A DNA stretch of 64,000 nt from an uncultured virus (IMG/VR IMGVR_UViG_3300010344_001225). Taxonomy: Duplodnaviria; Heunggongvirae; Uroviricota; Caudoviricetes. The stretch lies in the IMG/VR virus record IMGVR_UViG_3300010344_001225. One strand, 5' to 3'. The notes beneath the pieces were generated by a model that searched no databases, was not told the origin of the DNA, and worked only from the letters and a program-made list of their open reading frames with translations. Of this stretch, positions 2,689 through 46,750 are shown piece after piece (within the stretch, counting starts at the first letter, position 1; each line of letters opens with the position of its first letter). The position numbers and the translations under genes are program-made.

Positions 2689-4644
2689 TCACATACTCAT
2701 GAGCAGGTCACTCAGCTCACTTTCGATTTCGTCTCTGGATGGGATAACGCCAATCAGCGGATTGACCATCTTTCTTCCTTTTATATATATGTCATTTTTA
2801 GACACACCCTCGATGATCCGATCCCGCCGTTGACGTTGCAGATAATTGAGACCGTGCTTGGAAAGTTGCCACTCTTCTGGGTAGGCAACATCACAGGCAT
2901 CATCCTTCAGATAGTCATTGCGATTGCAGGAAATGAAGTGCTTGACACTGTCCTCGTCCTGCTCGGTCATGCTTTCAAACAGTGCCTTTTTCTTTCCGAC
3001 CAGGATACGAGGCTCATCCAAGGAAAAGAACATAATCGGCACACCGTCTCTAACTTTCGTAATTCCTCTGAAACGGAATCGGAAGTCCTCCACCCATTCC
3101 ATCTCATCGTAAATCGCCGTGCAGAAAGCACTTGCAGGAAAACTCAACTTCACGTCCCCGTTCTCATTCACCAGTGGTATGGCGTTTAAGGAATCGGGGT
3201 CACAGGGTCTTACTGCGATGGATTTCAGTATCGGATGATAAAGAATTTCTACCGCCGTGCACTGATTCATCTTCTTATGAAACGGTTTAGAGAAAGCAAT
3301 CCGTTTTGTGGAGAGTGTCATGGACGGCATTGTATTATTCAGAAAATAAACACCGTAAGGCACTTGGTATCCGGCACAGCTCATGGATATGACCTTGCTG
3401 TGCTCTTCGCCGAAGAGAATATTTGCTTCATGAAGGATTTCTTCCAGTTCTTCATCGGAATAAACGCTCTCGCAGGAAGCAATAAAAAAGTTATAGGTGA
3501 TTCCCGGCAGCATCGGATTGATACTGACAAAGCCTTTGAGTGTGCCTTCATCAATAACAGATAGTTCCGGAACGCCGTCCAACCGACCACACGTTTGTGA
3601 CATCAGTAGTGCTGCTCTTGCGACTTCCGGCGTTACGATACCCTCATGATGGTTCGGTACAAAGGCACCTTCACGGATGCCTTCGTTCTTAGCAATTTTC
3701 TTCTTTTTGTAATCAAGGACTATGGTCTTTCTGGCTTCCAGATTACCGCAGCGACGCTCGTTCTCGATAATGGCACGAACCATCTGACTGTTCCAGTCGG
3801 TTCTGCCCTTTAAGGTCGGACGCTGTTTTTCTGTCAACACCTCGGCGATTTCACCGGATGTATGTCCGGCAAGATATGCCAGATAAATATATCTGACAGT
3901 CTGTGCCTCTTCCGGCTGAATAATCAGATCTCCGTCCTTGGTGTGTCTGTAACCCAAAAGATCAGATACCGGAAACTGATTTGTGAAAATGCGCTGGTCA
4001 TAGGAAAGAATCATTCGGCGGCTCTTGTTGCCGGATTCCCAATCAGCCAGCAATGCATGAAACCCAAGCGTCTGATCTGCGTCCTTATTTAATGTGAATA
4101 TGTTCTCCGTTTCAAAGTAGACTCCGATTGGCTTTTTCGGGTTCATGGTACGAAGCTCAGTGACATATTCGATACAGTCAGCAATATTACGGGCAAAACG
4201 AGAAACGCTGGCACAAATAATCATGTCGAACTTTCCCGCTTTGGCATCTACCATCATGCGTTTGAAATCTTCCCTATGTCGGGTTGAAGTGCCGGATTTA
4301 CCTTCGTCACTATACACTTCCGTCAGATTCCAGTTCGGCGTCTTGTCAATTTTATCTCTGTAATACAGTTCCTGATTTTCAATTGATGAGGTTTGGTTCA
4401 GGCTTTTGGTGCTGACACGGGTGTAGACCGATACATCTTTTTCCGTATCGTCCATTGGATTCGGGGTCGGTTTGGCATGTTTATAGATTATTCCTTCATA
4501 GGATTTGGCATTGCGAACACGAGCACGGATAGCTTCTCTTTCAGCTTCTTTCTCCTCGTGCTGTTTTTGCCAGTCTGATTCTTTGGGTTTTTCCTGAAGT
4601 TCAGCCTCATGTTTAATAATGTCATCCATGCCTGTTTCCCTCAT
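2689..4644 (-). CDS. Large serine recombinase with C-terminal extension
   Basis: YTRVST catalytic motif, DEGKSG, SVSRFARN, recombinase domain ending HHEGIV; no obvious zinc ribbon. Confidence 0.92.
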   Translation of the reverse strand: MRETGMDDIIKHEAELQEKPKESDWQKQHEEKEAEREAIRARVRNAKSYEGIIYKHAKPTPNPMDDTEKDVSVYTRVSTKSLNQTSSIENQELYYRDKIDKTPNWNLTEVYSDEGKSGTSTRHREDFKRMMVDAKAGKFDMIICASVSRFARNIADCIEYVTELRTMNPKKPIGVYFETENIFTLNKDADQTLGFHALLADWESGNKSRRMILSYDQRIFTNQFPVSDLLGYRHTKDGDLIIQPEEAQTVRYIYLAYLAGHTSGEIAEVLTEKQRPTLKGRTDWNSQMVRAIIENERRCGNLEARKTIVLDYKKKKIAKNEGIREGAFVPNHHEGIVTPEVARAALLMSQTCGRLDGVPELSVIDEGTLKGFVSINPMLPGITYNFFIASCESVYSDEELEEILHEANILFGEEHSKVISMSCAGYQVPYGVYFLNNTMPSMTLSTKRIAFSKPFHKKMNQCTAVEILYHPILKSIAVRPCDPDSLNAIPLVNENGDVKLSFPASAFCTAIYDEMEWVEDFRFRFRGITKVRDGVPIMFFSLDEPRILVGKKKALFESMTEQDEDSVKHFISCNRNDYLKDDACDVAYPEEWQLSKHGLNYLQRQRRDRIIEGVSKNDIYIKGRKMVNPLIGVIPSRDEIESELSDLLMSM

Positions 4645-5129
4645 TCTGTCTCTAAGATAATGTTTTCTTCTATTTTATATAGCCATTCCAGATAGCGATT
4701 TGGCTCCACGGAAATGTACTTCTTTGCTGCCGCCAGAAGCTCTTCCCTCTGTTGCTCCGCGTTCTCAATCGTATTGATATTGTAATCAGCGTCCTCAGTG
4801 ATAAGATCAATCCGGTTCGGCAGCGTGAACAGATAATGAACCACAAAGAAGAAGTCTTCTGTGTTTGCCGCAAGATATGCTTTGGTCTGAGTGGCGATGC
4901 AGTTGATTCGTTTCCTCTTGCAAGCACCAAGCAACTGAAGCATACCGGGGCGTTTCCAGATTTCCTTTCGTCCGGTAATATCGATGTATACATCTATAAG
5001 CTCCATGTTTGGAACAGCCTTAAATTTTTCCTTATAATATTCCTGGTGAAGCATGATAGCCTCTTCTCTTTTTCTCTCCCAGAGCTTTGCCAGCTTCACA
5101 TATCCGACCACCTGGTAATTCTCATTCAT
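4641..5129 (-). CDS. Resolvase catalytic-domain-like protein lacking the catalytic serine
   Basis: VVGYVKLA in place of YxRVS; ELIDVYID, RPGMLQLL, INCIATQT pattern follows the resolvase fold. Confidence 0.65.
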   Translation of the reverse strand: MNENYQVVGYVKLAKLWERKREEAIMLHQEYYKEKFKAVPNMELIDVYIDITGRKEIWKRPGMLQLLGACKRKRINCIATQTKAYLAANTEDFFFVVHYLFTLPNRIDLITEDADYNINTIENAEQQREELLAAAKKYISVEPNRYLEWLYKIEENIILETE

Positions 5130-5350: not shown

Positions 5351-6333
5351 GTGTTTGTTTCTCCTTTACCGTCCGGCAAAGACCAATACCACTGACCGTC
5401 TTTTCGGATGGATATAATTCCGAGTTCCTTTTTCGCATTCCGGATGGTACGGTCACTAAGATTCATCCCTTTCAGCGATTCAAAGATTGCATTTGCCGGA
5501 AGCCTACCCTCCTTCAGTCGCTCAGCAATCAGAAATGCAACAGCGCAGGTTTTATTCATAGGCTTATCCGGTTTGCTTTCTTCTACCACAACTTTTCTGA
5601 CAGCCTCGATCCACCGGAAGCCTTCGTTCCGGTTAAGTTCGTAGTATATGTCTGCGCCTTTGGGAGCGAGACTGTTCTTGACCTGCTTAACTCTTTTAAT
5701 ATCAGGATTCTCTGAATCGCTTTCCACCTGCAAAACGCTTCTTGCTGCGGCGACCACATCAATACTGCCAATGCCACGGTAAAGATCTTTTGTGCCCTCG
5801 TTCTTAGTGAAGTGGCTTATCAATATAATGGCACAATCATACATGGCCGCCCAAATGGAAAGCCGGTGCATGAGCTTACGAGCTCTGCTGGTCACAAAGA
5901 TATTAGAATCACTACCGATGTAACTCTGTACCGGATCAATAACCACCAGTTTTGGTTTTACCGTGACAATAGACTCTCTGATTCGTTCATCATCAAGGGT
6001 AAGATTTGCAGCTATTTCTTCATCTATAAAAGCAATGTTACTGCAATCAGCACCGAAGGATTCAAGTCTCGGCTTAATCGTATCCGCCACGCCATCTTCA
6101 GAACACTGGTACATGGATTGAAGCGGTTCTTTTATCTTTGTTCCATCTGGCAATTGTCCCCCTCTTGACAGCTCTGCAATCAGGTTCAGCGCCATTGTTG
6201 ATTTGCCGTCACCCGGATCTCCTTGAAGAAGTGTTATCTTCGCCAGCGGTATGTACGGATACCATATCCAGCGCACTTTTGCCGATTGAATCTGATCGTA
6301 GGTTTTAAGATAATCAAGGTCATTTTCAACCAT
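5347..6333 (-). CDS. AAA_25 / RepA-like P-loop ATPase
   Basis: VRWIWYPYIP, Walker A GDPGDGKS, LVVIDP, SHFTK, GIGSID..AAARSVL; AAGGAGG before ATG at 6333. Confidence 0.88.
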   Translation of the reverse strand: MVENDLDYLKTYDQIQSAKVRWIWYPYIPLAKITLLQGDPGDGKSTMALNLIAELSRGGQLPDGTKIKEPLQSMYQCSEDGVADTIKPRLESFGADCSNIAFIDEEIAANLTLDDERIRESIVTVKPKLVVIDPVQSYIGSDSNIFVTSRARKLMHRLSIWAAMYDCAIILISHFTKNEGTKDLYRGIGSIDVVAAARSVLQVESDSENPDIKRVKQVKNSLAPKGADIYYELNRNEGFRWIEAVRKVVVEESKPDKPMNKTCAVAFLIAERLKEGRLPANAIFESLKGMNLSDRTIRNAKKELGIISIRKDGQWYWSLPDGKGETNT

Positions 6334-6479
6334 ACCGCTTGTGCCTCCTTCTCTTGCAATTGCTGACAATCAGAGCAATTTTAATTACACCTATAATTAT
6401 AGTGACATGGTGGTTGAATACCATGGCCTACAGGCCATATTTATTTCAAAAACTTTACCTATACACCATATTTTTGAGT

Positions 6480-6531
6480 AAGATGTACCACTCGTCTAAG
6501 GGAAAAAGGTGATCGCCTTGCAGCCTTACTT
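6480..6531. promoter_or_regulatory. Copy of the array half-sites in the divergent intergenic region
   Basis: aagatgtac 6480-6488 and gatcgccttgcagccttactt 6511-6531, matching array arms, with a 22-bp spacer. Confidence 0.7.
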
Positions 6532-6650
6532 TCCATAACACATTTTGTTCATAGAAAAGCATCAAAAAATGAGTTGATAACTGTCCACCGTAGAGGTAAT
6601 ATCCCACATGCTAAGTGGGTCTCCGACTCTTATTTACGAGGAGGTTTCAT

Positions 6651-6995
6651 ATGGAGATAAACTACATTAAACTTGGAGAAAGAGTCCGATTCTTCCGGCT
6701 GCAAGAAAAGCTGTCGCAGGAAGAGTTGGCAGAAAAAGCGGCAATTGGTGTAAAGCACGTCAGTTTCATTGAAAACGGGAATACGAATCCCAGTGTTGAT
6801 GTACTTGCCAACATCGCCGCTTCTCTAAACGTCACTTTAGACCAGCTTCTCATCGACAGTCTGTCAGATGATTTGCAAAACAAAAAAGACCTGAATAAGC
6901 TACTTCTGGAATGCACTCCGGAAGCAGCCTCTATTCTGGTCGACAATTTTACGGAATTAAAAAAGGTACTCGAAAAGTACCAGATCAAGGAATAA
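6651..6995 (+). CDS. XRE-family HTH regulator
   Basis: LGERVRFFR...LSQEELAEKA...HVSFIENG; GAGGAGG RBS. Confidence 0.9.
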   Translation: MEINYIKLGERVRFFRLQEKLSQEELAEKAAIGVKHVSFIENGNTNPSVDVLANIAASLNVTLDQLLIDSLSDDLQNKKDLNKLLLECTPEAASILVDNFTELKKVLEKYQIKE

Positions 6996-6999
6996 GGTC

Positions 7000-7067
7000 A
7001 AAAAAGACCCGCTATAGCCCCAGAAGCATCCACACAATGGATGCGATCTGTGGTTATAACGGGTCTG
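7000..7067 (-). terminator. Long hairpin terminator between convergent xre and ppd
   Basis: agacccg...gcatcca-cacaa-tggatgc...cgggtct with an A run on the + strand side. Confidence 0.7.
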
Positions 7068-7083
7068 AACATTTATATTGAAA

Positions 7084-8205
7084 TTATAGCGTTTTCAGAT
7101 ACTCCATAAAGTTCTGTTTGTTTTCCAAGGCAGTAGTGGTTGGTCTTCCGAGATCATCTCTTGCACCGATGGAACATTTCACTTCAATGAGGCTGAGTTC
7201 GTTTCTCGCCTTTGCTGCTTCAAGTTCCTTGTCCAATGCTTCGAAAGAATCAACACATACCGCATTCGGATAGCCACAGGCTTTTGCAATTGCAACAAGA
7301 TCAATAGAAGCGGCTACTGTCGGCATTCCTCCGACTGTTTCATGGGCTCCGTTGTTAATCACAACATGAATCATATTCTTCGGCTTGTTTGCTCCAAGAA
7401 CAGCCATTGAACCCATATGCATCAAAACAGCACCGTCTCCATCAACACACCAGATTCTTGTGTCTGGTTTGTTGATAGCAACGCCTAGGGCTATAGAAGA
7501 ACTATGACCCATTGAACCGACAGTCAAAAAATCATATTTATGGCTCTGTCCGTTGGCAACTCTTGTTTCAAAAAGTTCACGGCTTGCCTTGCCTGTCGTG
7601 CTGACAATCGGATCTTCTCCACTTGCCTTTACAATATGCTGAATGATTTCTTCACGAACCATCGTGTTATCATTTGCATATTTAACTTTCTCATCATAGG
7701 ACAAGGCACCCTTGCGGATAACAAAAGCTACGTCTTTCCCGGAAGCAAGCACTTCACGGTAATCAGCCATCACTGCTTCTACTTCTTCATCTGTGGTTTC
7801 TTTTCCAATAGCAAAAGCCTTAATACCCATATCTTCGAGGAGTTTTACCGTGACTTCACCCTGATAGATATGCTGCGGTTCATCGTGAATTCCCGGTTCA
7901 CCTCTCCAACCGACGATGAAAACAACAGGGATTGCATACACTTTATCATTTAATAAGGAAGCAACAGGATTGATGATGTTTCCTTCCCCGCTGTTCTGCA
8001 TATAAACGACAGGAACCTTACCGGTTGCAAGATGATAACCGGCAGCTAATGCTGTGCAGTTACCTTCGTTTGCCGCTATGATGTGATGCTTCTGATCTAT
8101 GCCATAGGTATTCATTAAGTAATTACACAGAGCCTTCAGCTGTGAATCCGGAACACCGGTATAAAAATCAGAACCAATTATTCTTACTAAGCTTTCTACT
8201 TTCAT
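7084..8205 (-). CDS. ppd: Phosphonopyruvate decarboxylase
   Basis: FYTGVPDSQLK, AANEG, YMQNSGEGN, DEPQH, TPP motif GDGAVLMHMG..NN. Confidence 0.95.
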   Translation of the reverse strand: MKVESLVRIIGSDFYTGVPDSQLKALCNYLMNTYGIDQKHHIIAANEGNCTALAAGYHLATGKVPVVYMQNSGEGNIINPVASLLNDKVYAIPVVFIVGWRGEPGIHDEPQHIYQGEVTVKLLEDMGIKAFAIGKETTDEEVEAVMADYREVLASGKDVAFVIRKGALSYDEKVKYANDNTMVREEIIQHIVKASGEDPIVSTTGKASRELFETRVANGQSHKYDFLTVGSMGHSSSIALGVAINKPDTRIWCVDGDGAVLMHMGSMAVLGANKPKNMIHVVINNGAHETVGGMPTVAASIDLVAIAKACGYPNAVCVDSFEALDKELEAAKARNELSLIEVKCSIGARDDLGRPTTTALENKQNFMEYLKTL

Positions 8206-9269
8206 TATCTCACAATCCTCTCATACATCTCATGAAGCACTTTGCTTTCGAGAGCTACCGGGTTATTTTTCAGTCTCACCGGATTGACAGATTCAGTCAG
8301 CAGATTCACATCTGCTTCTTTGTTTCCAGAAGTCGGATACTCCATTTCAAGGTCGGTCATCAGCTGGGTAAAAGAATCAAGTGAAAACATTTCTGAAATA
8401 TCAGAAAGGGTGTTCTTCAGATACTCTGCCCCTCTGTTATCAATGCAATCCTCTGTATGGGCAAGCATATAGCCCCACACTTCCGGCATACAAACAGCAA
8501 CCGCGTGTCCGTGCGGAAGATTATACATTGAAGTAATCTTGTAACTCATCGCATGAGCTGCTGTTGTTGCAGTGATGTTGATAGCTCTTCCGGCGTAGTT
8601 AGCAGCTTCCATAATCTTTGCCGCCGCCTCATCAGTATTGTCAAAGATATATGCCCTCCAATGGTCAATGATAATCTGAACTGCTTTTTTGGAATAACCG
8701 ATGCTTTCATCGTTACTGTTGACCGACCACCAAGATTCAATTCCCTGGCAAAGAGCATCTAACATCGTACATTTTTTCTGATAAACAGGAAGAGTCTTCA
8801 GCGAGGACGGTTCGAGAACTGCAGTATCAGGAACAATAGACGGATGGGAAATTGACTGTTTCTTTCCTTCATAATAGATAACAGCGTGTCTGGTCGATTC
8901 ACTTCCAGTTCCTGCAGTTGTCGGAATAGCAATCAGTGGAATGCCGGTGTCCTGCTTCTCCTGTTCAAGATAGTTAATGCTCGAATCCATCTTGCAATAT
9001 AACTTGATGCATTTGGCTACATCAATCGTGCTTCCACCGCCGACTGCGACTATCATATTACACTCATTGTCATTGAAAATCTTTACGCCTTCGCAGACCT
9101 GCTCATAAAGGGGATTCGGTGTGAACTCCGAAAACTCAACATGAGGAATCGCATCAAACAAGGTTTTTATTTTCAAATAGTTATAGGCACGGTCACGCAC
9201 CAGAATGAATTTTTGATTCTTAATCTGATCTACTATTTCGTCTATACCATGTACTATTTTCTGTGCCAT
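8205..9269 (-). CDS. Phosphonoacetaldehyde reductase (iron-containing alcohol dehydrogenase family)
   Basis: GGGSTIDVAK, IPTTAGTGSE, TTAAHAMSY, PHGHAVA, RLKNNP; between pepM and ppd. Confidence 0.88.
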   Translation of the reverse strand: MAQKIVHGIDEIVDQIKNQKFILVRDRAYNYLKIKTLFDAIPHVEFSEFTPNPLYEQVCEGVKIFNDNECNMIVAVGGGSTIDVAKCIKLYCKMDSSINYLEQEKQDTGIPLIAIPTTAGTGSESTRHAVIYYEGKKQSISHPSIVPDTAVLEPSSLKTLPVYQKKCTMLDALCQGIESWWSVNSNDESIGYSKKAVQIIIDHWRAYIFDNTDEAAAKIMEAANYAGRAINITATTAAHAMSYKITSMYNLPHGHAVAVCMPEVWGYMLAHTEDCIDNRGAEYLKNTLSDISEMFSLDSFTQLMTDLEMEYPTSGNKEADVNLLTESVNPVRLKNNPVALESKVLHEMYERIVR

Positions 9270-9303
9270 CCTTACTCCTCCAGCCTAAATAGTCTTTTCG
9301 TGT

Positions 9304-10311
9304 TTATACTTTTTCAAGTATTGTCTTTTTGCCATTTAGTATTGGCAAATATTTATTGATAATCGGACATACAACATACCTATACGCAACGAGCACAATT
9401 ACAAGAAAAGGAATCAATATCAAATCGTAATAAATTATGCCAGACGCACCGATTTTTCCCATAATTGCTCCAAATACAGACACCAATGGATAGTGGGTAG
9501 CAACTATTACGACACTGTTATCACACAGGAATCGTGACCATTTCGTACTGGGAATAAAATGGCAAATCGCAAACATCATCACACTCCCGAATAATCCCGA
9601 TGCAATAAAAAATAAGTAATTTCCCAGTTCCATTCCATAAAACGAAACTTTACCATTTAATACCACACCGAAGACAAACCACAAAATTGATGAACATATT
9701 CCCATAACCACAACTTGCTTTTTACTCTTGAATATTTCAAGTGCATTCAGCATTTCTCCGATTCGATAAAAAGCAAAGGCAATGATCACTTTCTTAAATC
9801 CAAAATAATCAGGTATATTAACATTTATGTACAGTAAAAATCCGACTATCAATGCAATGCATATTTCCAACAGATACACCCAGTTTGTACTGCTCTTAAT
9901 TTGATCTGTTATCAGGATTAAAATCTCAATACAGAACAAACATATAAAAAACCAGATTGGATCATTATAGATAAGTCGTCCATATAAATATATAGCAGAA
10001 CTCCAGTTGATTTCATTATGCAAAACAATCGCTAAAGATGTTTCAATTAAAACTTCCCAAATGAGTGCTGGTAATAAAACTCGGAAAAACCTTTTCTTCA
10101 ACCAACTCAAATTTTTCGTTTTTCCTCTTGAAACAAATCCTGCCGCGATAAAAAACATGGGCATATGAAACGAGTATATGGCTCTATTTATACCCCCCCC
10201 GAAAGAAGTTCCATAGAGGAAGTGCCCGAGAACAACTAGGACAACACCTATTGCCTTTGCACTATCTAACCACATAACCCGCTCTGATTGACAAGTTTGC
10301 AGAGATTCCAT
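9304..10311 (-). CDS. Membrane O-acyltransferase (Acyl_transf_3)
   Basis: RVMWLDSAKAIGVVLVVLGH, IYSFHMPMFF, WFF; hydrophobic, visibly AT-rich. Confidence 0.9.
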   Translation of the reverse strand: MESLQTCQSERVMWLDSAKAIGVVLVVLGHFLYGTSFGGGINRAIYSFHMPMFFIAAGFVSRGKTKNLSWLKKRFFRVLLPALIWEVLIETSLAIVLHNEINWSSAIYLYGRLIYNDPIWFFICLFCIEILILITDQIKSSTNWVYLLEICIALIVGFLLYINVNIPDYFGFKKVIIAFAFYRIGEMLNALEIFKSKKQVVVMGICSSILWFVFGVVLNGKVSFYGMELGNYLFFIASGLFGSVMMFAICHFIPSTKWSRFLCDNSVVIVATHYPLVSVFGAIMGKIGASGIIYYDLILIPFLVIVLVAYRYVVCPIINKYLPILNGKKTILEKV

Positions 10312-10315
10312 TTCC

Positions 10316-12325
10316 TTATTCCTCCGGAATCAGTGTGATAATATCCTTGATGCTCATACAGACATCGTCACACTCTTTTGCTCTGTGGTTCTCAAGGATC
10401 AATTTAGCCGCATTCTGCATTGCTGGGAATCCGGTTCGGGTCAGCTGATTGGCATAAATAATGACATTGGCACCGAGTTCTTTCCATTCGTCCTCATATA
10501 CAGCATTGAAGGAAGTCGGCACAAGAACCACAGGCGTTGTCTGATCCTTTTTACGGAACTTGGCAATGAACTCTTTGATTTCGGACGGATCTTTCTTACG
10601 ACTGTGAATCATGATAGCATCAGCTCCGGCTTCCACAAACGCAAAAGCTCTGGTCAGAGCATCATCCATTCCCTGTTCAAGAATCAGGCTTTCAATACGA
10701 GCACAGATCATGAAGTCCTTTGTCTTTTGTGCAGCTTTACCGGCTCTGATCTTGGCACTGAAGTTTTCGATGCTATCCTGTGTCTGCTTGACTTCGTTAC
10801 CAAACAGACTGTTTTTCTTCAGACCGCACTTGTCCTCAATGATAATCATGGAAACACCCATACGCTCCAAGGTGCGAACAGTATATACGAAATGCTCTGT
10901 CAATCCGCCTGTGTCACCGTCAAAAATAATCGGTTTGGTCGTAACTTCCATAATGTCATCAATGGTGCGGAAACGGGAGGTCATATCGACAAGTTCGATA
11001 TCCGGCTTACCTTTTGCCGTAGAATCACAGAGAGAGGAAATCCACATAGCATCAAACTGATAGGTCTTTCCTTCCTGGAGAACCTTTGTCTTTTCAACAA
11101 TCAGACCGGTAATACCGCTGTGGGCTTCCATTGCCGTTACGGTTCCCTTCATATTGATAAGCTTTTTCAGTCTGCCACGACGGAAATCCGGCATCGAGAG
11201 CTGTGCTCTGGACTGCTTCTCTATTTCTTCATATTTATCGTTCTTGGAGTACGGAAACTCTACAAGCTGTCCACCGTATTCGGCAAGTATCGATACAACT
11301 TCATCTCTGATAGGCTTCTGGAATCCTTCTTTCCAATCGTCACCGTGAACCACATAAGTAGGTTTGAACTTATGAAGGTTTTCTGCGTAGCTGAGTTCTT
11401 TCTGCTCAACAACCTTTTCGATTCCGGCGATATTCTCAAACACCGTCTTTCTCTCCTCATACGGCATCAGCGGGAAACGCTTATAGGAAGCCACCGCTTC
11501 ATCGGAAAGCACACCGATGATCAGTTTGCCGAGCTTCTGGGCTTTTCTGATAATAGCGATGTGTCCGCTATGAACCATATCGGTTGAGAAGCACATATAA
11601 ACCGTGCGGTTTTCAATCTCATGCAGTCTGCCGGATACAACAGCCAGGTCTTCCGGCGTGTCAATTTCAGAGCAGAGACGATCCTTTACATCATAAGCAT
11701 AGATAGCACAGTCTTCGGAGATTTCGTTAAATGCAACCTCAGCATAGCATTTGCGTTTATCGTTCTCACAATACTCACAGATCTTATCAAGCCACTTGTT
11801 CCATTCCTTCTTGTTCAGCTTGTATAAAGCCTGTGATTCCATTGCATCGGTAAAGAATTCAACTCCGACCTTGTACACTCTGCCGTCATGAACAACAGAC
11901 TTGAAGTCCTTTTCCGGCAGTGCTATTGTAGATGAAACCTTCATGCAGCTGTCTTCAAACTCAAGAATATCATCAAGCACAGATTCTTCAAACACAAGAT
12001 CACCATGCATCAGGACAATATCCTCATCCCTAAGATAGTCTTTTGCACAGTAGATAGAATATATGTAATTTGTTTCCGCATAAAGCGGGTTGTTTACAAA
12101 GGTGAAATGCAAAGGTAGATTCAAAGAGTGACAGTAATTGACCAAAATCTCGTCAAAATAACCTGTGGTCATGACTACTTCTTCGATACCGGCTTTTGCC
12201 AATAAACGAAGCTGACGGCTCAAAATCGTATCTTTTGCGGAAATTTCAGTCATGCACTTCGGATGCTCCGAAGTAAGGACTCCCATACGGTGTCCAAGGC
12301 CTGAATTAAGAATCAATGCTTTCAT
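10316..12325 (-). CDS. pepM: Phosphoenolpyruvate mutase fused to NTP-transferase (PntC/LicC-like) and HxGH cytidylyltransferase domains
   Basis: N-term ILNSGLGHRMG..PKCM; DMVHSGH; PEP mutase signature EDKCGLKKNS, DGDTGG. Confidence 0.95.
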   Translation of the reverse strand: MKALILNSGLGHRMGVLTSEHPKCMTEISAKDTILSRQLRLLAKAGIEEVVMTTGYFDEILVNYCHSLNLPLHFTFVNNPLYAETNYIYSIYCAKDYLRDEDIVLMHGDLVFEESVLDDILEFEDSCMKVSSTIALPEKDFKSVVHDGRVYKVGVEFFTDAMESQALYKLNKKEWNKWLDKICEYCENDKRKCYAEVAFNEISEDCAIYAYDVKDRLCSEIDTPEDLAVVSGRLHEIENRTVYMCFSTDMVHSGHIAIIRKAQKLGKLIIGVLSDEAVASYKRFPLMPYEERKTVFENIAGIEKVVEQKELSYAENLHKFKPTYVVHGDDWKEGFQKPIRDEVVSILAEYGGQLVEFPYSKNDKYEEIEKQSRAQLSMPDFRRGRLKKLINMKGTVTAMEAHSGITGLIVEKTKVLQEGKTYQFDAMWISSLCDSTAKGKPDIELVDMTSRFRTIDDIMEVTTKPIIFDGDTGGLTEHFVYTVRTLERMGVSMIIIEDKCGLKKNSLFGNEVKQTQDSIENFSAKIRAGKAAQKTKDFMICARIESLILEQGMDDALTRAFAFVEAGADAIMIHSRKKDPSEIKEFIAKFRKKDQTTPVVLVPTSFNAVYEDEWKELGANVIIYANQLTRTGFPAMQNAAKLILENHRAKECDDVCMSIKDIITLIPEE

Positions 12326-12388
12326 CGATTTACGTCTCCTTAAATTATTGGATTACAAAACAGACCGTTAAATCACAACGGCCTGTAT

Positions 12389-12417
12389 AGTATAGCACAT
12401 AAAAGACGATAAATCAA
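12389..12417 (-). promoter_or_regulatory. SigA-type promoter of the phosphonate operon
   Basis: TTGATT-17 bp-TATACT with extended TG. Confidence 0.7.
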
Positions 12418-12447
12418 CCCTTTCATAGAAAATTTACAAATTTCCTC

Positions 12448-12476
12448 TTGAAAATCACCATAAGTTGATTTATAAT
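12448..12476 (+). promoter_or_regulatory. SigA-type promoter of xre-ispD with overlapping palindrome
   Basis: TTGAAA-17 bp-TATAAT; AAATCACC-ataa-GTTGATTT at 12452-12471. Confidence 0.75.
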
Positions 12477-12544
12477 ATATTCATCTCGGATTTTTCGGGA
12501 AAAGTCAATCCGGAATCGAGTATGATAAACGGACGGAGGCCAAT

Positions 12545-13483
12545 ATGGGAATCGGAACAAATATAAAGAAGAGAAGATTTGAACTTAAAATGTCACAGCA
12601 AGACCTGGCAACAGCAATGGGATACACATCAAAATCAACTATCGCAAAAATAGAATCCGGAGAAAACGGTGTGTCCTCAAAGAAACTCTCACTGTTTGCA
12701 AAGGCACTGAACACCACAGTAGAAGAGCTTGTGGCGGGAGCATCGGTTGCACCTATACCGTATGAAGCACCTGCCGTTTCAGATGGGCATAAAAACATAG
12801 CGGTCATTCTTGCCGGAGGCAAGTCAACTAGGAATCAGCAGAATATCCCAAACCAGTTTATTTCCGTTTTTGGAAAACCCATCATCATTTATTCAATGGA
12901 AGCATACCAAAAACATCCAGCTATCAGCGATATATATGTTGTATGTATTAAAGGTTGGGAAGATATTGTACATTCTTATGCACAACAATTCGGCATCACC
13001 AAATTAAAAAAAGTACTCCCATCCGGAGAAACGGGAATACTGTCGGTTAAAAGTGCTGTTGATTATTTGGATGGTATATGCAAAGAAAGCGATACTATAA
13101 TCTTTCAGGAATCAACAAGACCTTTAGTAACAGAAGAAAACATATCCCGGCTTCTTCTTGAATACTCAGAAAAAGGGTCAGCAGCAACTTGTGGCTCTAT
13201 GTCCGAGCATCTGCAATTCTTTGTCAAAGACAGTACAATAAGATATATAGATCGAAATTATCTGATTGAAACACAATCGCCTGAAGCTTATCGGTATGGA
13301 GATCTTGCTTCATTATTTAAAAAGGCAGAAAAGAACAAGCATAGATTTACTGAAAGCTGCTGCAGTATGTTTATGTTCAATCTTGGCATGAAACCTAACT
13401 TCTTTGAGGGTAACCTAAGTAATATCAAAATAATCCGAGCCGAAGATATTGCCCTTTTCACGGCATACATTAAGCAACAATAA
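12545..13483 (+). CDS. XRE HTH fused to a degenerate IspD/TarI cytidylyltransferase domain
   Basis: MSQQDLATAMGYTSKSTIAKIESG then AVILAGGKSTR...PNQF, QESTRP, QSPEAY, NIKII.AED. Confidence 0.88.
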   Translation: MGIGTNIKKRRFELKMSQQDLATAMGYTSKSTIAKIESGENGVSSKKLSLFAKALNTTVEELVAGASVAPIPYEAPAVSDGHKNIAVILAGGKSTRNQQNIPNQFISVFGKPIIIYSMEAYQKHPAISDIYVVCIKGWEDIVHSYAQQFGITKLKKVLPSGETGILSVKSAVDYLDGICKESDTIIFQESTRPLVTEENISRLLLEYSEKGSAATCGSMSEHLQFFVKDSTIRYIDRNYLIETQSPEAYRYGDLASLFKKAEKNKHRFTESCCSMFMFNLGMKPNFFEGNLSNIKIIRAEDIALFTAYIKQQ

Positions 13484-13496
13484 GGCAAAAAGAAAA

Positions 13497-13541
13497 GACC
13501 CAGCTTGCATTCCATCATTGGTGTGGATTGCAAGCTGGGTC
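13497..13541. terminator. Hairpin between convergent xre-ispD and recombinase genes
   Basis: gacccagcttgca...tgcaagctgggtc 13-bp perfect stem. Confidence 0.75.
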
Positions 13542-13550
13542 AAAATTCTT

Positions 13551-14777
13551 TTAAGCTGCATCTTCTATCTCAATCTCAATCCGTCCGTCATTAAAAAGCA
13601 CCACCTTTTTAATCTGTTCAAAAGTCCTCTCCGTGACCGCTTCCACACCATTCCACTTAATGCCCAAGTGTTCTGAAAGGGCTTTAAACAGGTCTTCCTC
13701 GGAAATCACATCGTTTTTGCAGCTCTTGCTGTCTTTCATTCTGCCTTTACATTTCCAGACTTTCTGCTGTTCTCCTCGATAGCAGATGGTTCTGCGGGTC
13801 AGTGGCATTCCGCAATCTCCGCAGAAAAGTTTACCGTGCATGAAGTGTTCCCTTGAAGATGAGTACACACCGTTTGCTTTTCTCTCTTTTTCCAGTTTGA
13901 GCCTTGCCTGAACGGTTTCCCACATCTCACGGCCAATGATGCCTTCGTGATCGTTTTCGATGTAGTAACTTGCGTATTCTCCACCCGGCACAGGCTTCTT
14001 TGTCCGATAATCGGTGTGCGGTTCTTTTTGAAGTCTACGGTCACCGACGTACATCTCATTGCTCAAAATATAATAGATGGTCGAGGGGTTATAAGAATTT
14101 TTGCTTCTCAGTCGCTTGGCTCCCCGTTTATTCAATAGCTTTATGATGTCCTTGACCGGCTTCCCGGCAGCGTACTCCGTGAAGACAAGCTTTGGAATCC
14201 ATGCCTGAGAATTAGGTTCCAACGTACCGTCCACTTCATCATAGCCAACGACTCGGTTGTTACCGATGTGCCTGATGCCCTGCTCTGCCAGCCTTTTGTA
14301 TGCCCACTTGACGTTATCGGAAATGGAGCGAGACTGTTCTTCCGCAACCGCTGACATGAAGTTAAAGACCACTTCGGCTTGAGCATCGAAGGAGGAAAGG
14401 TTCTCTTTTAAGAATTTGACCTCGACCACCGATGCTTTGAGCATGTGAACATACTCCTGAACTTCCGCACTGCTTCTGCCAAAACGGGAAATCGACTTGC
14501 AGAGGATGATGTCGATTTTGCCGTCCAGAGCATCCTGAATCATTCGCATGAACTCCGGACGCTTCTCCGCCATGAGACCCGTTTTCCCCTCATCCGCATA
14601 GATGCCCATGTACTCCCAGCCATTTATGCTTCGTATGTAGGTATCGAAAAACTCCTTCTGGGAAGTAAAGGATTCTTCCTGCTCTTCCTGCAGAGTACTG
14701 ACACGGACATAAGCCGCCACTTTTTTCTTGTGTTCTTGAAATGCTTTTGAAATTTTATTTATTTTCACGTTTCTCAC
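13551..14777 (-). CDS. Large serine recombinase (third of triplet)
   Basis: AAYVRVST, SISRFGRS, zinc ribbon CGDCG...WKC. Confidence 0.93.
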   Translation of the reverse strand: MRNVKINKISKAFQEHKKKVAAYVRVSTLQEEQEESFTSQKEFFDTYIRSINGWEYMGIYADEGKTGLMAEKRPEFMRMIQDALDGKIDIILCKSISRFGRSSAEVQEYVHMLKASVVEVKFLKENLSSFDAQAEVVFNFMSAVAEEQSRSISDNVKWAYKRLAEQGIRHIGNNRVVGYDEVDGTLEPNSQAWIPKLVFTEYAAGKPVKDIIKLLNKRGAKRLRSKNSYNPSTIYYILSNEMYVGDRRLQKEPHTDYRTKKPVPGGEYASYYIENDHEGIIGREMWETVQARLKLEKERKANGVYSSSREHFMHGKLFCGDCGMPLTRRTICYRGEQQKVWKCKGRMKDSKSCKNDVISEEDLFKALSEHLGIKWNGVEAVTERTFEQIKKVVLFNDGRIEIEIEDAA

Positions 14778-16356
14778 CGTCCTTTACATAGGGAATCTGA
14801 AATTCTTCATCGGGTTCCGGCATCTTGATCAGCAGGTTACCGATAAAACGCTGTCTTGCTTCCAATCCTCTGAAAGAGGAAGTGGCTGACTTTCGTTCAA
14901 GGAGGAATCCGCCGAACCGAATCTTACCTTTGACGATCTCCCCGATTTCTGGATATGGGTGAAAGAAAACCGATTCGTATTGAATTGGAACGGTCGTTTT
15001 TGTTTCGTCTTTCCATGTGACTTCCATCTCATTCCATGTCGGGAAGGTGATGCTCTCGACCAAAAGGCGAATAGTGCTGAACATGATGCTGTCGTCCGAT
15101 TCTTTCAACTCTTTGCGGATCGCAGTCAGTTTCTCCTGCATCCGCCAGTCCTGTTTTGCTACAGGGATTTTTCTGATGGCTTCCGCAAGGGCTTTGTCAA
15201 TTACAGATTCAAAAACCATGTACGGTGGGCAGGAGCTTCTGTCTCCCTGACGCTCGGCTTCTCCGTGACCGGAACATACCCACACCTTCGGTGATTTTGC
15301 GGAGTGCAGGCGGCAGGAAACCATCGGCGCACCACAGAACGGACAAACAAGGTAGCCGCTGTAAGGGAACTGAATGTACCCCCGTCTGGAGTCACGCAGT
15401 TGTAGAATTCTTCGCACCTCTTGGTGATCTTCTCGGCTGATGATTGGGTCGTGATGATCTTTGAGGTAATACTGCGGAACAAGCAGGTCGTTGTTTGTCT
15501 GGCTTTTATGGTTCAGGTGGTCAACCGTGTAGCTTTTTTGCATCAGGACATCACCGATGTATTTCTCGTTCTTTATCATGCTGAGAATAGTCGAACAAGT
15601 CCACTCTGTTACTTTACCCGACCTTGTAGGAATGAACTCATGATTCAGATAATCCGCAACCTGTGTCGGTGTATACCCGTCGATCAGCAGGGAGAAAATA
15701 AGCCGCACAATCTGTGCTTCTTCTGGCACGATTTCCCAGTTTCCATCCTTATCTACGCTGTAGCCGTAGGCTTTGGTTTTCATGGGAATACCGAGCTTGA
15801 AGCGGTTTCTGATTGCGGTCTTTAAGGATTCGGAAATCTCATGAGATTCTTCCTGGTTGAAGGCTGCGTACACCGTCAGAAGAAGTTCCGAGGTCATGCT
15901 CAAAGTGTTTATGTTTTCTTCATCAAAATAGAAGCCGACCCCGATGTCACGCATCATTCTGGTGTACTCCAGCATGTCCCTTGTGTTTCTCGCCACACGG
16001 GAAACCGACTTTGTCAGAATCAGGTCGATCTTTCCGGCTTTCGCATCTTCAATCATTCTAAGGAAGCCTGACCTGCCCTTTACCATCGTTCCTGTTTTAC
16101 CCCTGTCGGAATAAATCTCAACAATTTCCCATTCGGGATGCTCCGAGATGGTCTTTTCAAAGGCTTCCATCTGAAGTTCAATACTGCTTTCCTGAATCTC
16201 CATTTCCGTGGAAACTCGGCAGTAAGCCGCTACACGGAGTTTTGCGGTTTCCGCAACCGTACTCTTTTTCCTTGAAATAATCTTGAGGCCTTCTGTCATG
16301 GCAGAATCTTCTACCATTCCGTTTTTTCTTACAGCCGTTGACATTGCCATTGTCAT
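14755..16356 (-). CDS. Large serine recombinase (second of triplet)
   Basis: AAYCRVST, SVSRVARN, CPFCG...WVC. Confidence 0.93.
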   Translation of the reverse strand: MTMAMSTAVRKNGMVEDSAMTEGLKIISRKKSTVAETAKLRVAAYCRVSTEMEIQESSIELQMEAFEKTISEHPEWEIVEIYSDRGKTGTMVKGRSGFLRMIEDAKAGKIDLILTKSVSRVARNTRDMLEYTRMMRDIGVGFYFDEENINTLSMTSELLLTVYAAFNQEESHEISESLKTAIRNRFKLGIPMKTKAYGYSVDKDGNWEIVPEEAQIVRLIFSLLIDGYTPTQVADYLNHEFIPTRSGKVTEWTCSTILSMIKNEKYIGDVLMQKSYTVDHLNHKSQTNNDLLVPQYYLKDHHDPIISREDHQEVRRILQLRDSRRGYIQFPYSGYLVCPFCGAPMVSCRLHSAKSPKVWVCSGHGEAERQGDRSSCPPYMVFESVIDKALAEAIRKIPVAKQDWRMQEKLTAIRKELKESDDSIMFSTIRLLVESITFPTWNEMEVTWKDETKTTVPIQYESVFFHPYPEIGEIVKGKIRFGGFLLERKSATSSFRGLEARQRFIGNLLIKMPEPDEEFQIPYVKDGEKRENK

Positions 16357-17306
16357 GATTTCTTGCTCCTTCCTCTTTTTCTGCCGGTCATCAACTTCTG
16401 GACATGTTCAAACTGTTCTCTGCTGATAATCGCCGGATGATGGTCTTCTAAGTAATACTGGTTCCTAATGCCGTTGTTTTTCACGGGCTTTCCGCTCAAA
16501 TAATCTGCTACCACTGTTTTGTTCGTCAAAATGTCGCCCACATAAGCAATGTTTCGAAGCATCCCGCACACCTTGCCGGAATACCACACAAATTCGCTTC
16601 CTTTTTCACGCTCAATCTCGTTCATCTTTTGAGCGACAGAGTAGGAAGTTCCGCCTGCTTCAATCATGTCAAACATCATGCGGACGTGTTCCGCTTCTTC
16701 CTTGTGGATGATCCATTTATGTCTTTCAACTTCCTGCGGGGCTTTTCGGTAGCCGTAGCAGGCTTTGTAGACCGGTTTTCCGATGGCGGCACTGGCATCC
16801 ACCGACCAGCGGATCGCCTGACTCTGCACGTTGCTTTGCTGTTGAGCGAAGCTTGCGAGAAGCTTCAACACCAGCCGTAGTCTTTCATCATTGCTTTTGA
16901 TCTGCTCTTTTTCAAAAATTACGTAGACACCGTTTTCGTGCAGGGTGTCCAAAAGTTTCTGACACTCGGAGGCATTTCGTGCGATTCGGGAAATGGATTT
17001 TGTGTAGATCACATCGACCTTTCCGTCCTTACAGTCCTGAATCAGCCTTTGAAGTTCCGGTCTGCTTTCCATGCGAAGTCCGGAAAGTCCGTGGTCTCCG
17101 TAAATGTCTACCAGCGTCAACATCGGATTCGTTTCAATAAATGTTTTGTAGTACGTCACCTGACTTTCAAAAGAAAAATCCTGTTCTTCCAACAAGGTAC
17201 TGACCCGGCAGTATGCCGCTGCCCGCAGTACCTTTTTCTTTTCGTTTTCGTCATCCGCTTTTACATTGTGCGTGGTGACGATGATCTGTTTTTTTACTCT
17301 TGCCAT
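16353..17306 (-). CDS. Serine recombinase (first of triplet, no zinc ribbon)
   Basis: AAYCRVST, SISRIARN, ends after HHPAIIS. Confidence 0.92.
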   Translation of the reverse strand: MARVKKQIIVTTHNVKADDENEKKKVLRAAAYCRVSTLLEEQDFSFESQVTYYKTFIETNPMLTLVDIYGDHGLSGLRMESRPELQRLIQDCKDGKVDVIYTKSISRIARNASECQKLLDTLHENGVYVIFEKEQIKSNDERLRLVLKLLASFAQQQSNVQSQAIRWSVDASAAIGKPVYKACYGYRKAPQEVERHKWIIHKEEAEHVRMMFDMIEAGGTSYSVAQKMNEIEREKGSEFVWYSGKVCGMLRNIAYVGDILTNKTVVADYLSGKPVKNNGIRNQYYLEDHHPAIISREQFEHVQKLMTGRKRGRSKKS

Positions 17307-17726
17307 CTGTGAACCTCTCTTTGCTCTTATTTTTGGGTAAAAAATTACCCGGCTCTTTTTCAGAGACCGGGTGATCGGTGGAATGCCTGCATTCTTCTAT
17401 GTTGTTTTGTACGTGGCCGTTTCAATTGTCGGAGCATGGTTTTCGACTCCTTTCGCTGGATTTGCCCTGGCTTCAAGGCATGATCATTGATCACTCGAAT
17501 AGTAATTAAAGTCAAGTTGTTTCGGCAAATCAAATTGATAAATAATTGTGTCTGACTGCATCTTTGACTATACCCAGTTTATCCCATACAAAAGTATCTG
17601 CAAGTACCATTCCCGGCAAAACGGACATTTTTCACCTGAATCAAAAAATAAAAAAAAGCCGGTCACAGAACAACCACAAAAGGGCTGCTCCGCAACCGGC
17701 TAAACACAGATGGCATTATTCAATTG

Positions 17727-18659
17727 TTATCTCACACGAATCTTCTGTCCCGGATAAATCAGATCCGGATTTGCGATACCGTTAACCTCGGCAAGGTGCT
17801 GGTAGGTCGTGCCGTACTTCGCCGCAATAGCAGAAAGCGTATCACCGGATTTCACCGTGTAGTATTCTGCGGAAGATGCACCGCAGAGTTCGTTGACTCT
17901 GTTCTGCACAGCGTTATAATCATAACCGGCTGCCGTCAGACGGTTTTTGCGGTCGTCACCGTTGCCCCACTTGCCTTCAAGGACTTCATGGGCAAGGGTG
18001 TCCACGGACTTATCTCCGCTTGGCACAGGAGCCGGTGTGGGCTTACTGCCGCCCTTCGGATTGGCGTACTTGCCCCAGGCTTCCGCGTCCATATAGGCTT
18101 TATCCAAGTCGAGCCATCCGGAATAACCGGAAAGTTGGCCGTGAGAACTGTACTGACGAATCGCGCAGTCGTAGGCTCCCTCGTTCCACGGATTTTCCTG
18201 ATAGCCGGTGGGATCGTTGTCCGCATACTGGGCAATCCACATACCATAGTCACCGATGCCGTCAAAACGGCTTCTGAATGCTGCGGAACAATACAAGAGC
18301 GGACGAACTCCCGTCCTGCTGTACACACGGTCAAGCCAGGTCTTACACCAGTTGAAATCATTGACTCCGAAGGTCGGATTGTCCGTGCTTTCCCAGTCAA
18401 GCACCAGAATGGCATCGCCGATATAACCCTCAATATTTTTGAGGAAATAATCGGCTTCTGCGATGGCGTCCCCGCCTTCTGCGTAGTGATAAACACCTCG
18501 TAGTTTTCCTGCTCTCTTGCACTGCTGATAGAAATTATCGCAACAGGAATCCACAAGCCATGTTCCCTGCGTTGCTTTCATAATCACAAAATCGGCGGGA
18601 ACAGCTGCTACATTCATTCCCTTCTGCCAACTGGAAATATCAATACCTTTTAAACTCAT
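17727..18659 (-). CDS. Endolysin: GH25 muramidase + CW_7 + LysM
   Basis: [59 protein letters not shown]. Confidence 0.95.
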
Positions 18660-45574: not shown

Positions 45575-46645
45575 TTACTGTTCCCAAGGAAGTTCAGGTT
45601 TCCCGAAATGTCCGTAAGTTGATGTGAGGTTGTAGTCCACATCAAGCAAACCCAACCCGTCAATAAGACCTCTCGGTGTCAGGTCGTAGCTGTCTTTCAC
45701 AAAGGCATCGATGAACTCTTTGCTTTGGTACTCCGTGCCGAAACAGTCCACCGTAACGGATACCGGATCTTCCTTACCGATGGCATAAGCGATACTGACC
45801 TCACACTTATCGGCGTAACCGGCACGGACGATATCACGTGCAATCTTCCTTGCAGCGTAAGCCGCCGAGCGGTCAACCTTGGTCGGGTCTTTTCCTGACA
45901 TAGCACCGCCGCCGATATGACCGACACCGCCGTAAGTATCACAGGCAAGTTTTCTGCCGGTGACACCGCAGTCGGCAACGGGACCGCCGATGACAAATCT
46001 GCCGGTCGGATTAACGAGCTTTTCAAAGTCACCGTTCAGTCCGTACTCGGAAGCAGCCAATACCATCAGGCTTTCGATAATATGACGGAAGTCACTCACT
46101 TCCACATCCGGGCTGTGCTGTACCGAACAGAGGAAGGTGGTGATGCGACCGGTATCGTAATCGAAACTGACCTGTGCCTTGGCATCCGGCTTAAACATCT
46201 TACTGGGATGGTTCTTCAGCACTTTCAGAAACTTGGTCGCAACTGCAAACGGAAGCGGCAGCATCTCCGGCGTTTCGTTTGTAGCGTAGCCGTACATGAT
46301 TCCCTGGTCACCCGCTCCGCCTTTGTCCACACCAAGGGCAATGTCCGGTGACTGTTCTCTGACCATGATTCCAATGTCAAGGTTGCCGGGGAAAGGCTGG
46401 ATGTACGCATCCTCGTATCCGATGCGTTTCAGCACACCGTACACCAAACCGGCATAGTCAGGACGGCGTTTGCTTGTCAGCTCTCCGGCGATAATCAGGT
46501 GGCTGTCCTTAAACAGGCACTCGATAGCCACACGGCTGTTTTTGTCATGGGCAAGGCAGTCGGTCACGATGGCATCCGCGATCTGGTCACAGATTTTATC
46601 AGGATGTCCGTCCGACACCTGCTCACAGGTAATAATTCTGCTCAT
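45575..46645 (-). CDS. metK: S-adenosylmethionine synthetase (phage-borne)
   Basis: GHPDKICDQIAD, GAGDQG, NPTGRFVIGGP, GGGAMSGKDPTKVDRS, YGHFG. Confidence 0.96.
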   Translation of the reverse strand: MSRIITCEQVSDGHPDKICDQIADAIVTDCLAHDKNSRVAIECLFKDSHLIIAGELTSKRRPDYAGLVYGVLKRIGYEDAYIQPFPGNLDIGIMVREQSPDIALGVDKGGAGDQGIMYGYATNETPEMLPLPFAVATKFLKVLKNHPSKMFKPDAKAQVSFDYDTGRITTFLCSVQHSPDVEVSDFRHIIESLMVLAASEYGLNGDFEKLVNPTGRFVIGGPVADCGVTGRKLACDTYGGVGHIGGGAMSGKDPTKVDRSAAYAARKIARDIVRAGYADKCEVSIAYAIGKEDPVSVTVDCFGTEYQSKEFIDAFVKDSYDLTPRGLIDGLGLLDVDYNLTSTYGHFGKPELPWEQ

Positions 46646-46750
46646 AGGTTGTTCCTCATCTTTCTGATTGATATTTAGGCAAAAGAAAAACCCCACGGGT
46701 ACGCACGGGGCGCACACGCGAGGCTCTTGATGCACTCTTTCATCGTACCC

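Follow-up and report, generated by a model that had tools for sequence, protein, structure and literature searches.

The 64,000-nucleotide stretch of DNA analysed here (the window) carries a predicted regulator gene at positions 12545–13483 on the plus strand, whose 312-residue product combines an XRE-type helix-turn-helix (HTH) domain, a variable linker and a putative pseudo-enzyme domain of the IspD/TarI fold. The HTH domain (12563–12730, residues 7–62) matches Pfam HTH_3 with an E-value of 5e-12 and a score of 46 bits against a gathering score of 23, which places it in the XRE family, and the second domain (12797–13474, residues 85–310) matches Pfam IspD (PF01128, E 1e-19). The fusion of an XRE domain to an IspD/TarI domain reported in a first-pass annotation of the sequence is thereby confirmed. 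In a structure model, the IspD-like domain matches IspD/TarI structures (Foldseek E 2e-19; TM 0.8), and its scores fall far below the NCBIfam equivalog cut-offs (TIGR00453, 105 versus 181 bits; NF001183, 83 versus 166). The linker (residues 66–82) is poorly conserved and modelled with low confidence; mean pairwise identity across loci is 79% for the HTH domain versus 13% for the linker.

Divergently oriented to this gene, as had been noted, lies a minus-strand phosphonate operon whose first gene (10316–12325) encodes a triple fusion of an NTP transferase resembling PntC/LicC (NTP_transf_3), a cytidylyltransferase-like domain (CTP_transf_like) and a PEP mutase (PepM; TIGR02320 above cut-off, EDKCGLKKNS motif), with the catalytic residues R13, K23, D109 and K142 of the NTP transferase intact. 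A triple fusion of PF12804, PF01467 and Ppm has been described in 42 proteins (PMC6697681), and the regulated genes resemble phosphonyl tailoring clusters of the PntC/Fom1 type. The same strand encodes an acyltransferase-3 (9304–10311; low GC, about 33%), an Fe-containing alcohol dehydrogenase (Fe-ADH; 8205–9269) in the PhpC-type position, which would convert phosphonoacetaldehyde to 2-hydroxyethylphosphonate (HEP), and a phosphonopyruvate decarboxylase (Ppd; 7084–8205; TIGR03297 above cut-off). Following the branch-point logic of PMC8942020, the operon is assigned to the HEP pathway. Most bacterial phosphonate capacity is directed to surface tailoring (PMC6697681), and the cassette in the window is without LicD or another acceptor enzyme. 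RNA-library contigs from four runs span the operon and part of the regulator gene; their ends (12202, 12372) disagree, and such contigs cannot show transcript starts or levels. The acyltransferase gene is a variable insert: the related locus L001 does not have it, and the contigs of two runs leave it out, joining 9268 to 10313. A second, stand-alone XRE gene (6615–6995, plus strand) converges on the end of the operon, and short minus-strand remnants at 15–241 resemble the cytidylyltransferase-like domain (49%) and the C-terminus of PepM (64%), suggesting that a second pepM fusion has decayed there.

On the other side of the regulator gene, a 13-bp inverted repeat (13497–13541), likely a terminator, separates it from convergent recombinase genes. 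The minus-strand region 13551–60100 begins with three serine recombinases, followed by genes that look prophage-like from their ORF translations (endolysin, tail, capsid, portal, terminase, methyltransferases, a MetK-like protein at 45575–46735 and DNA polymerase). As a second recombinase module lies at 2689–5129, mobile-element genes border the phosphonate cassette on either side. Comparison of 12200–13700 with the related locus L082 reveals high DNA identity upstream and through the HTH region that falls off sharply from about codon 83 onwards (pS 0.28 versus 0.82). The recombinases adjoining the regulator are only 34–54% identical to those of L082, and the pattern points to a mosaic junction within the regulator gene or close to it. 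Three imperfect, non-coding direct repeats of about 65 nt, spaced by 81–91 nt, occur at 978–1235, and an Rfam search of positions 6000–18000 returned no match. No full-length homologue of the regulator was found in 50,697 annotated phage records and only two viral contigs matched it, which argues that the regulator is not a typical phage gene.

The same architecture recurs in many bacteria. HTH_3 is joined to IspD in all of the best 120 of 1445 homologue matches, although not every match is fused, and in two ESM Atlas clusters of 96 and 120 members. The 80 genome loci collected here are titled mostly as Clostridia, and the source names of the ESM Atlas members include Eggerthellales and one Spirochaetota bin. 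These source names call the members IspD or XRE regulator; labelling the family as IspD, or simply as an XRE protein, is a misannotation. Within the open literature, screened by title and opening of the abstract, no description was found of an XRE–IspD fusion, of a transcription factor with an IspD/TarI fold or of a regulator of phosphonate tailoring; neither PMC6697681 nor PMC8942020 mentions a regulator. The family is real and conserved, and as a regulator family it seems to be undescribed.

Inactivity of the IspD-like domain had been proposed from two motifs, PNQF in place of PKQF and QESTRP in place of HDxxRP. Both variants are present (N103 and residues 188–193); in the alignment they stand opposite PKQF and HDSARP of IspD enzymes whose structures are solved. 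Overall, the regulator of the window has S94, N103 (codon 12851–12853), Q188-E189 and I297 in place of the catalytic G, K, H-D and T, and it keeps G91, G92, G161, S167, R192, R237 and K295. N103, S94 and I297 stand at the equivalents of K27, G18 and T215 in E. coli numbering. In a set of 121 close proteins, position 103 holds N in 81 and S in 40, and all of them have Q188-E189. A wider comparison set 94 fused rows against 112 stand-alone relatives; the fused rows comprise the 80 genome loci minus one partial locus, plus viral, window and divergent representatives, three of them being the window's own sequence. Four rows from other lineages misbinned as fused (P0223, P0225, P0233, P0261) and two HTH-less or fragmentary family members (P0136, P0140) were left out of the counts. 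Lysine at position 103 is found in 0/94 fused versus 112/112 stand-alone rows (2/98 versus 112/114 with the six rows put back), P-loop glycine at position 94 in 0/94 versus 108/112, and L2-loop threonine at position 297 in 12/94 versus 100/112. Arginine at position 96 (R20-equivalent) is retained in 77/94 fused and 111/112 stand-alone rows. In IspD, the Gly, Arg and Lys contact the triphosphate and the Thr pairs with the Arg (PMC5099578), and the K27A exchange in the GxG(T/S)Rx4-8PK motif abolishes activity (PMC6697681). The window reads GKSTR…PN at this motif and has isoleucine (I297) where the conserved threonine would pair with the P-loop arginine.

Residues of the pocket that contact the cytosine and the phosphate are, by contrast with these losses, kept. 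Ala10, Gly80 and Ser86 contact cytosine in IspD (PMC5099578, the source of the ribose contacts as well), and the corresponding positions, mapped by motif spacing, retain G91 in 94/94, G161 in 84/94 and S167 in 94/94 fused rows; R192 (94/94), K295 (91/94) and R237 are likewise conserved. Lost triphosphate contacts combined with a retained cytidine pocket would suit a binder of CMP/CDP conjugates or of cytidine nucleotides. The IspD-like domain differs from that of L082 with a pS of 0.82 and a pN of 0.05, and is thus maintained under purifying selection rather than decaying.

Loss of HDxxR was rejected as proof of inactivity, since stand-alone IspD-like neighbour genes that look active also lack the D and R and keep the lysine; the argument for inactivity therefore rests on the Lys, Gly and Thr losses, from which we infer that the domain is catalytically inactive. 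Five such stand-alone genes (L003:8914-9684, L010:9112-9831, L044:6743-7558, L063:6280-7011 and L073:3746-4510) keep the catalytic lysine, have SFGVSP or HMSVSP in place of HDxxRP, and are probably cytidylyltransferases for other substrates. Residual activity of the regulator domain is possible, as R96 and K295 are mostly kept. A bifunctional protein, in which a still active nucleotidyltransferase of altered specificity would regulate via its own substrate or product, could draw on the conservation of R96, R192, R237, K295 and the cytosine pocket, on the intact fold and on the precedent of NadR (PMC12421817). We nonetheless regard it as improbable, because the K27-equivalent, the P-loop glycine and the L2-loop threonine are lost family-wide, R96 is replaced in 17/94 fused rows, and the gene beside the regulator encodes an intact transferase in 76 of the 80 genome loci.

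In these 76 loci, the first divergent gene encodes a nucleotidyltransferase, namely a PntC/LicC-like stand-alone enzyme (type A) in 64, an IspD-like enzyme in nine, a LicC–choline-kinase fusion in two and a PepM fusion in one. A GlpT/PgtP-like MFS transporter is next in 57 of the 64 type-A loci, and four of the other seven are cut by contig ends. In three of the remaining four loci, an IspD-like gene lies upstream and points the same way, accompanied in two of them by an aquaporin and an FGGY kinase. In L164 and L165, a LicD-LicD-aquaporin-IspD-like-FGGY operon ends with the regulator gene, which lacks its own palindrome. The divergent operon contains pepM in only two of the 80 genome loci (L001 and L018), and pepM occurs anywhere in 10 of the 80 (incomplete) genomes. 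The earlier proposal that the regulator controls phosphonate synthesis thus fits the window, L001, L018 and L082 but cannot be extended to the family: linkage to a nucleotidyltransferase is general among its neighbourhoods, while linkage to pepM is rare. Control of distant pepM operons in trans was considered and rejected, as none of eight pepM operons found elsewhere in genomes with the regulator has a promoter palindrome and a target-type half-site occurs only in L137 and, in part, in L139.

The loci are phylogenetically related, and a FastTree tree groups all 64 type-A regulators in a single clade, so that locus counts are not independent. The clade of the window stands apart, adjoining L063 (support 0.79), whose target consists of an IspD-like enzyme and an FGGY kinase. 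From this position, the phosphonate link appears to have originated more than once; the window's clade offers only about three independent loci with pepM (the window, L082/L143 and L001). With 41% identity to the window's domain, the type-A transferase has the same catalytic and pocket residues; at the position of the amine-contacting Glu104 of T. denticola PntC it carries histidine. Among the 120 best long relatives of this transferase, the fusion partner is an Fe-ADH in 118 and PepM in two, and the Fe-ADH of these 118 fusions shows a median identity of 47% to the alcohol dehydrogenase of the window versus 29% to an unrelated one. LicD is present in 43 of 50 type-A genomes, a count made without a taxon-matched background. 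The commonest target accordingly looks like an import-and-cytidylylation module, consisting either of a PntC-like transferase and a GlpT-type transporter or of an IspD-like enzyme and a kinase. That the type-A module salvages HEP has, on these sequence comparisons, a slightly better than even chance of being right. AepP provides a precedent for a GlpT-related phosphonate permease (PMC8316502); it feeds catabolism, whereas the MFS transporter of the regulon, which may resemble it, is paired with an activating transferase.

The intergenic region holds a predicted operator, the palindrome AAATCA-N8-TGATTT at 12452–12471, which fills the spacer of the predicted regulator promoter (12448–12476, plus strand; TTGAAA at 12448–12453, 17 bp, TATAAT at 12471–12476). 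The palindrome had been placed in this promoter before, and its second arm indeed ends at 12471. It is the sole site within one mismatch in the 64-kb window. Upstream of the genome homologues, it is found exactly in 61/80 loci and within one mismatch in 74/80, as against no exact and six near matches in 1,203,441 other positions, and spacers of 2–15 other than 8 gave no exact match. Conservation reaches about 2 bits in the arms, while the centre of the palindrome varies freely. In 68 of the 74 palindrome-bearing loci, the palindrome fills a 17-bp spacer between the −35 and TATAAT; three loci, L032, L044 and L073, retain the palindrome although the flanking promoter hexamers are missing, and six of the 80 loci are without it. 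A genome-wide pattern scan recovered it in 43/50 genomes, typically once, versus 0/50 for the reversed control, and a metagenome scan found it in 23/26 loci, many of them near-duplicates. The sequence footprint of a conserved palindromic operator at the regulator's own promoter is therefore well supported. A wider regulon was sought via the palindrome and rejected: 12 extra exact sites were found, most inside ORFs and none beside a cytidylyltransferase or phosphonate gene, which indicates that the regulon is local.

Boxes related to the palindrome arms had been reported at 12370, 12411 and 12452, and all three are present. The half-site AAATCAAC (12411–12418), 41 bp from the palindrome, covers the −35 element TTGATT (12417–12412) of the predicted phosphonate-operon promoter (12389–12417, minus strand; TTGATT, 17 bp, TATACT), so that its proposed overlap with the pepM −35 is borne out; the target −35 is also TTGATT in L001 and L082. 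The leader box (12370–12376) lies 82 bp from the palindrome and in helical phase with it, yet it is the weakest of the three, being enclosed in a leader hairpin (12360–12386, minus strand; z −1.9) of uncertain role, shifted in L082 and absent from L001. TGATTT sequences just before start codons were treated as derived from ribosome-binding sites (RBS) and not as operators.

Across the family, half-sites within 70 nt number 66 in one orientation and 8 in the opposite one, compared with 13.6 ± 3.3 in shuffles, and at least one same-orientation half-site is present in 59/74 loci. Their distances from the palindrome arm peak at 30, 41 and 52 bp, with a resultant of 0.74 at a period of 10.3–10.5, and relative to the divergent −35 they lie at −12, −1 or +10/11. 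The target promoter in L029, L044 and L073 is separate from that of the regulator and carries tandem half-site arrays, reaching the RBS in L029, and a second promoter in L001, ahead of a transferase and an MFS transporter, has a one-mismatch palindrome. The AT-rich intergenic DNA, the 38 occurrences of AAATCA[AC] in the 64-kb window and the serine recombinases flanking the cassette might suggest that the boxes are chance matches or promoter elements and that the fusion is an accidental neighbour of pepM at a prophage edge. This reading is largely refuted by the footprint, shuffle, spacer-length and reversed-pattern controls together with the gene linkage in 76/80 loci, and retains hardly any credibility.

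The divergent −35 is found about 12, 23, 34, 45 or 56 nt from the palindrome edge, at 34 nt in the window and in 34/77 loci. Such quantised spacing is also compatible with activation, in which the same regulator on the same operator would repress its own gene as a palindrome-bound dimer and contact RNA polymerase at the divergent promoter while keeping to one face of the helix, possibly with imported substrate as the inducer. The weak target −35 of the window (TTGATT) and the suitability of substrate induction for salvage modules speak for this alternative, but half-sites that cover the −35, fall within the spacer or extend past the start site as far as the RBS occupy polymerase-occluding positions, most target promoters are near-consensus, and substrate induction fits the de novo operons of the window, L001 and L018 poorly. 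Activation is accordingly considered unlikely, and the half-site placements favour cooperative repression.

The mechanism that we favour, and hold to be reasonably probable as a whole, is that of an autoregulated repressor family that senses a cytidine metabolite and locally controls donor activation. The IspD/TarI-fold domain, its catalysis lost, would serve as a module for dimerisation and ligand sensing, and the dimer would bind AAATCA-N8-TGATTT in its own promoter spacer, causing autorepression. From the palindrome, the regulator may engage half-sites on the same helical face, 3–5 turns away, over the divergent promoter, which is most likely repressed. The targets would always be operons led by or containing a cytidylyltransferase and making CMP/CDP-activated donors for LicD-type surface-glycan decoration. 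In the window, this would be de novo HEP synthesis (PepM, Ppd, Fe-ADH) plus activation to CMP-HEP, and in most relatives import plus activation. The first-pass proposal of a one-component regulator with a pseudo-enzyme sensor, an operator and divergent control hence gains strong comparative support, although its phosphonate-specific form is too narrow for the family.

The signal is most likely a cytidine-containing metabolite. Q188, E189, R192, S245, E247, N293 and K295 are nearly fixed across all target types, although positions 214, 217, 242 and 249 vary by type. A pocket that is nearly invariant across differing target chemistry favours a shared cytidine moiety over a sensor specific for a CMP-phosphonate. 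The activated product acting as a feedback co-repressor is a serious candidate for the ligand, if one somewhat short of an even chance, and would fit because both synthesis and salvage are controlled, as in NadR (PMC12421817). Recognition of CTP, CDP or CMP is possible but less easily credited, and recognition of the unactivated substrate appears distinctly doubtful. That the protein is a regulator without ligand, or an active enzyme, is in sum also rather unlikely. In particular, the IspD-like domain might act purely as a scaffold for oligomerisation, or as a module through which the protein contacts the neighbouring transferase, with ligand-independent cooperative repression. IspD dimerises via its beta-meander (PMC5099578) and phased half-site arrays imply oligomerisation, but an invariant polar pocket (S167, Q188, E189, R192, Q224, S245, E247 and K295) would be needless for a scaffold, and this version is given very little weight. 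More speculatively, the favoured repressor may be devoted to sensing cytidylyl donors in activated form (CMP-2-hydroxyethylphosphonate, CDP-polyols) and spread cooperatively along phased half-sites from the nucleating palindrome, its commonest regulon (GlpT-type transporter and PntC-like transferase in pepM-less genomes) serving to salvage community-made phosphonate onto the surface glycans of gut Clostridia. This extended picture is offered tentatively; no precedent for such a dedicated sensor was found in the open literature.

Two known regulators offer the closest parallels. NadR of Salmonella and E. coli also fuses an N-terminal HTH to a nucleotidyltransferase domain, senses NAD, its product, against ATP, and represses synthesis as well as salvage/uptake genes (PMC12421817). 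Its transferase, however, has another fold, is active and carries an added kinase, whereas the domain described here has the IspD/TarI fold, lacks the catalytic lysine and is linked to cytidylyl-activation operons. Only HTH_3 and IspD/NTP_transf_3 were detected, and not the NMN adenylyltransferase and ribosylnicotinamide kinase of NadR, and no NAD genes are among the recurring neighbours of the regulator. NrtR shares an enzyme-derived effector domain with a degraded catalytic signature, annotation as an enzyme, linkage to its regulon and regulon plasticity, but combines a Nudix domain with a C-terminal winged HTH, neither of which the present regulator has, senses ADP-ribose and controls NAD metabolism (PMC2330246). 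Moreover, the NrtR signature decays "more or less randomly" (PMC2330246), while the replacements seen here are fixed (N/S/T103, Q188, E189). From IspD and TarI, which have the same fold and cytosine-pocket residues, the regulator differs in its XRE HTH, in the replaced K, G and T and in a context without MEP- or TarJ-type genes. With a DNA-binding domain, a degraded enzyme fold and linkage to the cognate pathway, it probably qualifies as an enzyme-derived one-component regulator that works like NadR and NrtR and belongs neither to these families nor to active IspD/TarI.

Across many gut and digester bacteria, the family is probably an undescribed metabolite-sensing switch for the import or synthesis, and activation, of phosphate and phosphonate building blocks of surface sugars. 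It offers a precise predicted operator of 20 bp, defined target promoters and a short list of ligands, and its regulons hint at salvage modules that have yet to be characterised in abundant, uncultured gut bacteria, namely one for probable HEP uptake and one combining a polyol facilitator, an FGGY kinase and an IspD-like enzyme. HTH–nucleotidyltransferase fusions of other kinds occur as well: P0223 joins an XRE-like N-terminus to an IspD domain with an intact lysine, and a 74-member ESM Atlas cluster of 374-residue proteins joins HTH_3 to NTP_transf_3, a good match that is taken as a lead only.
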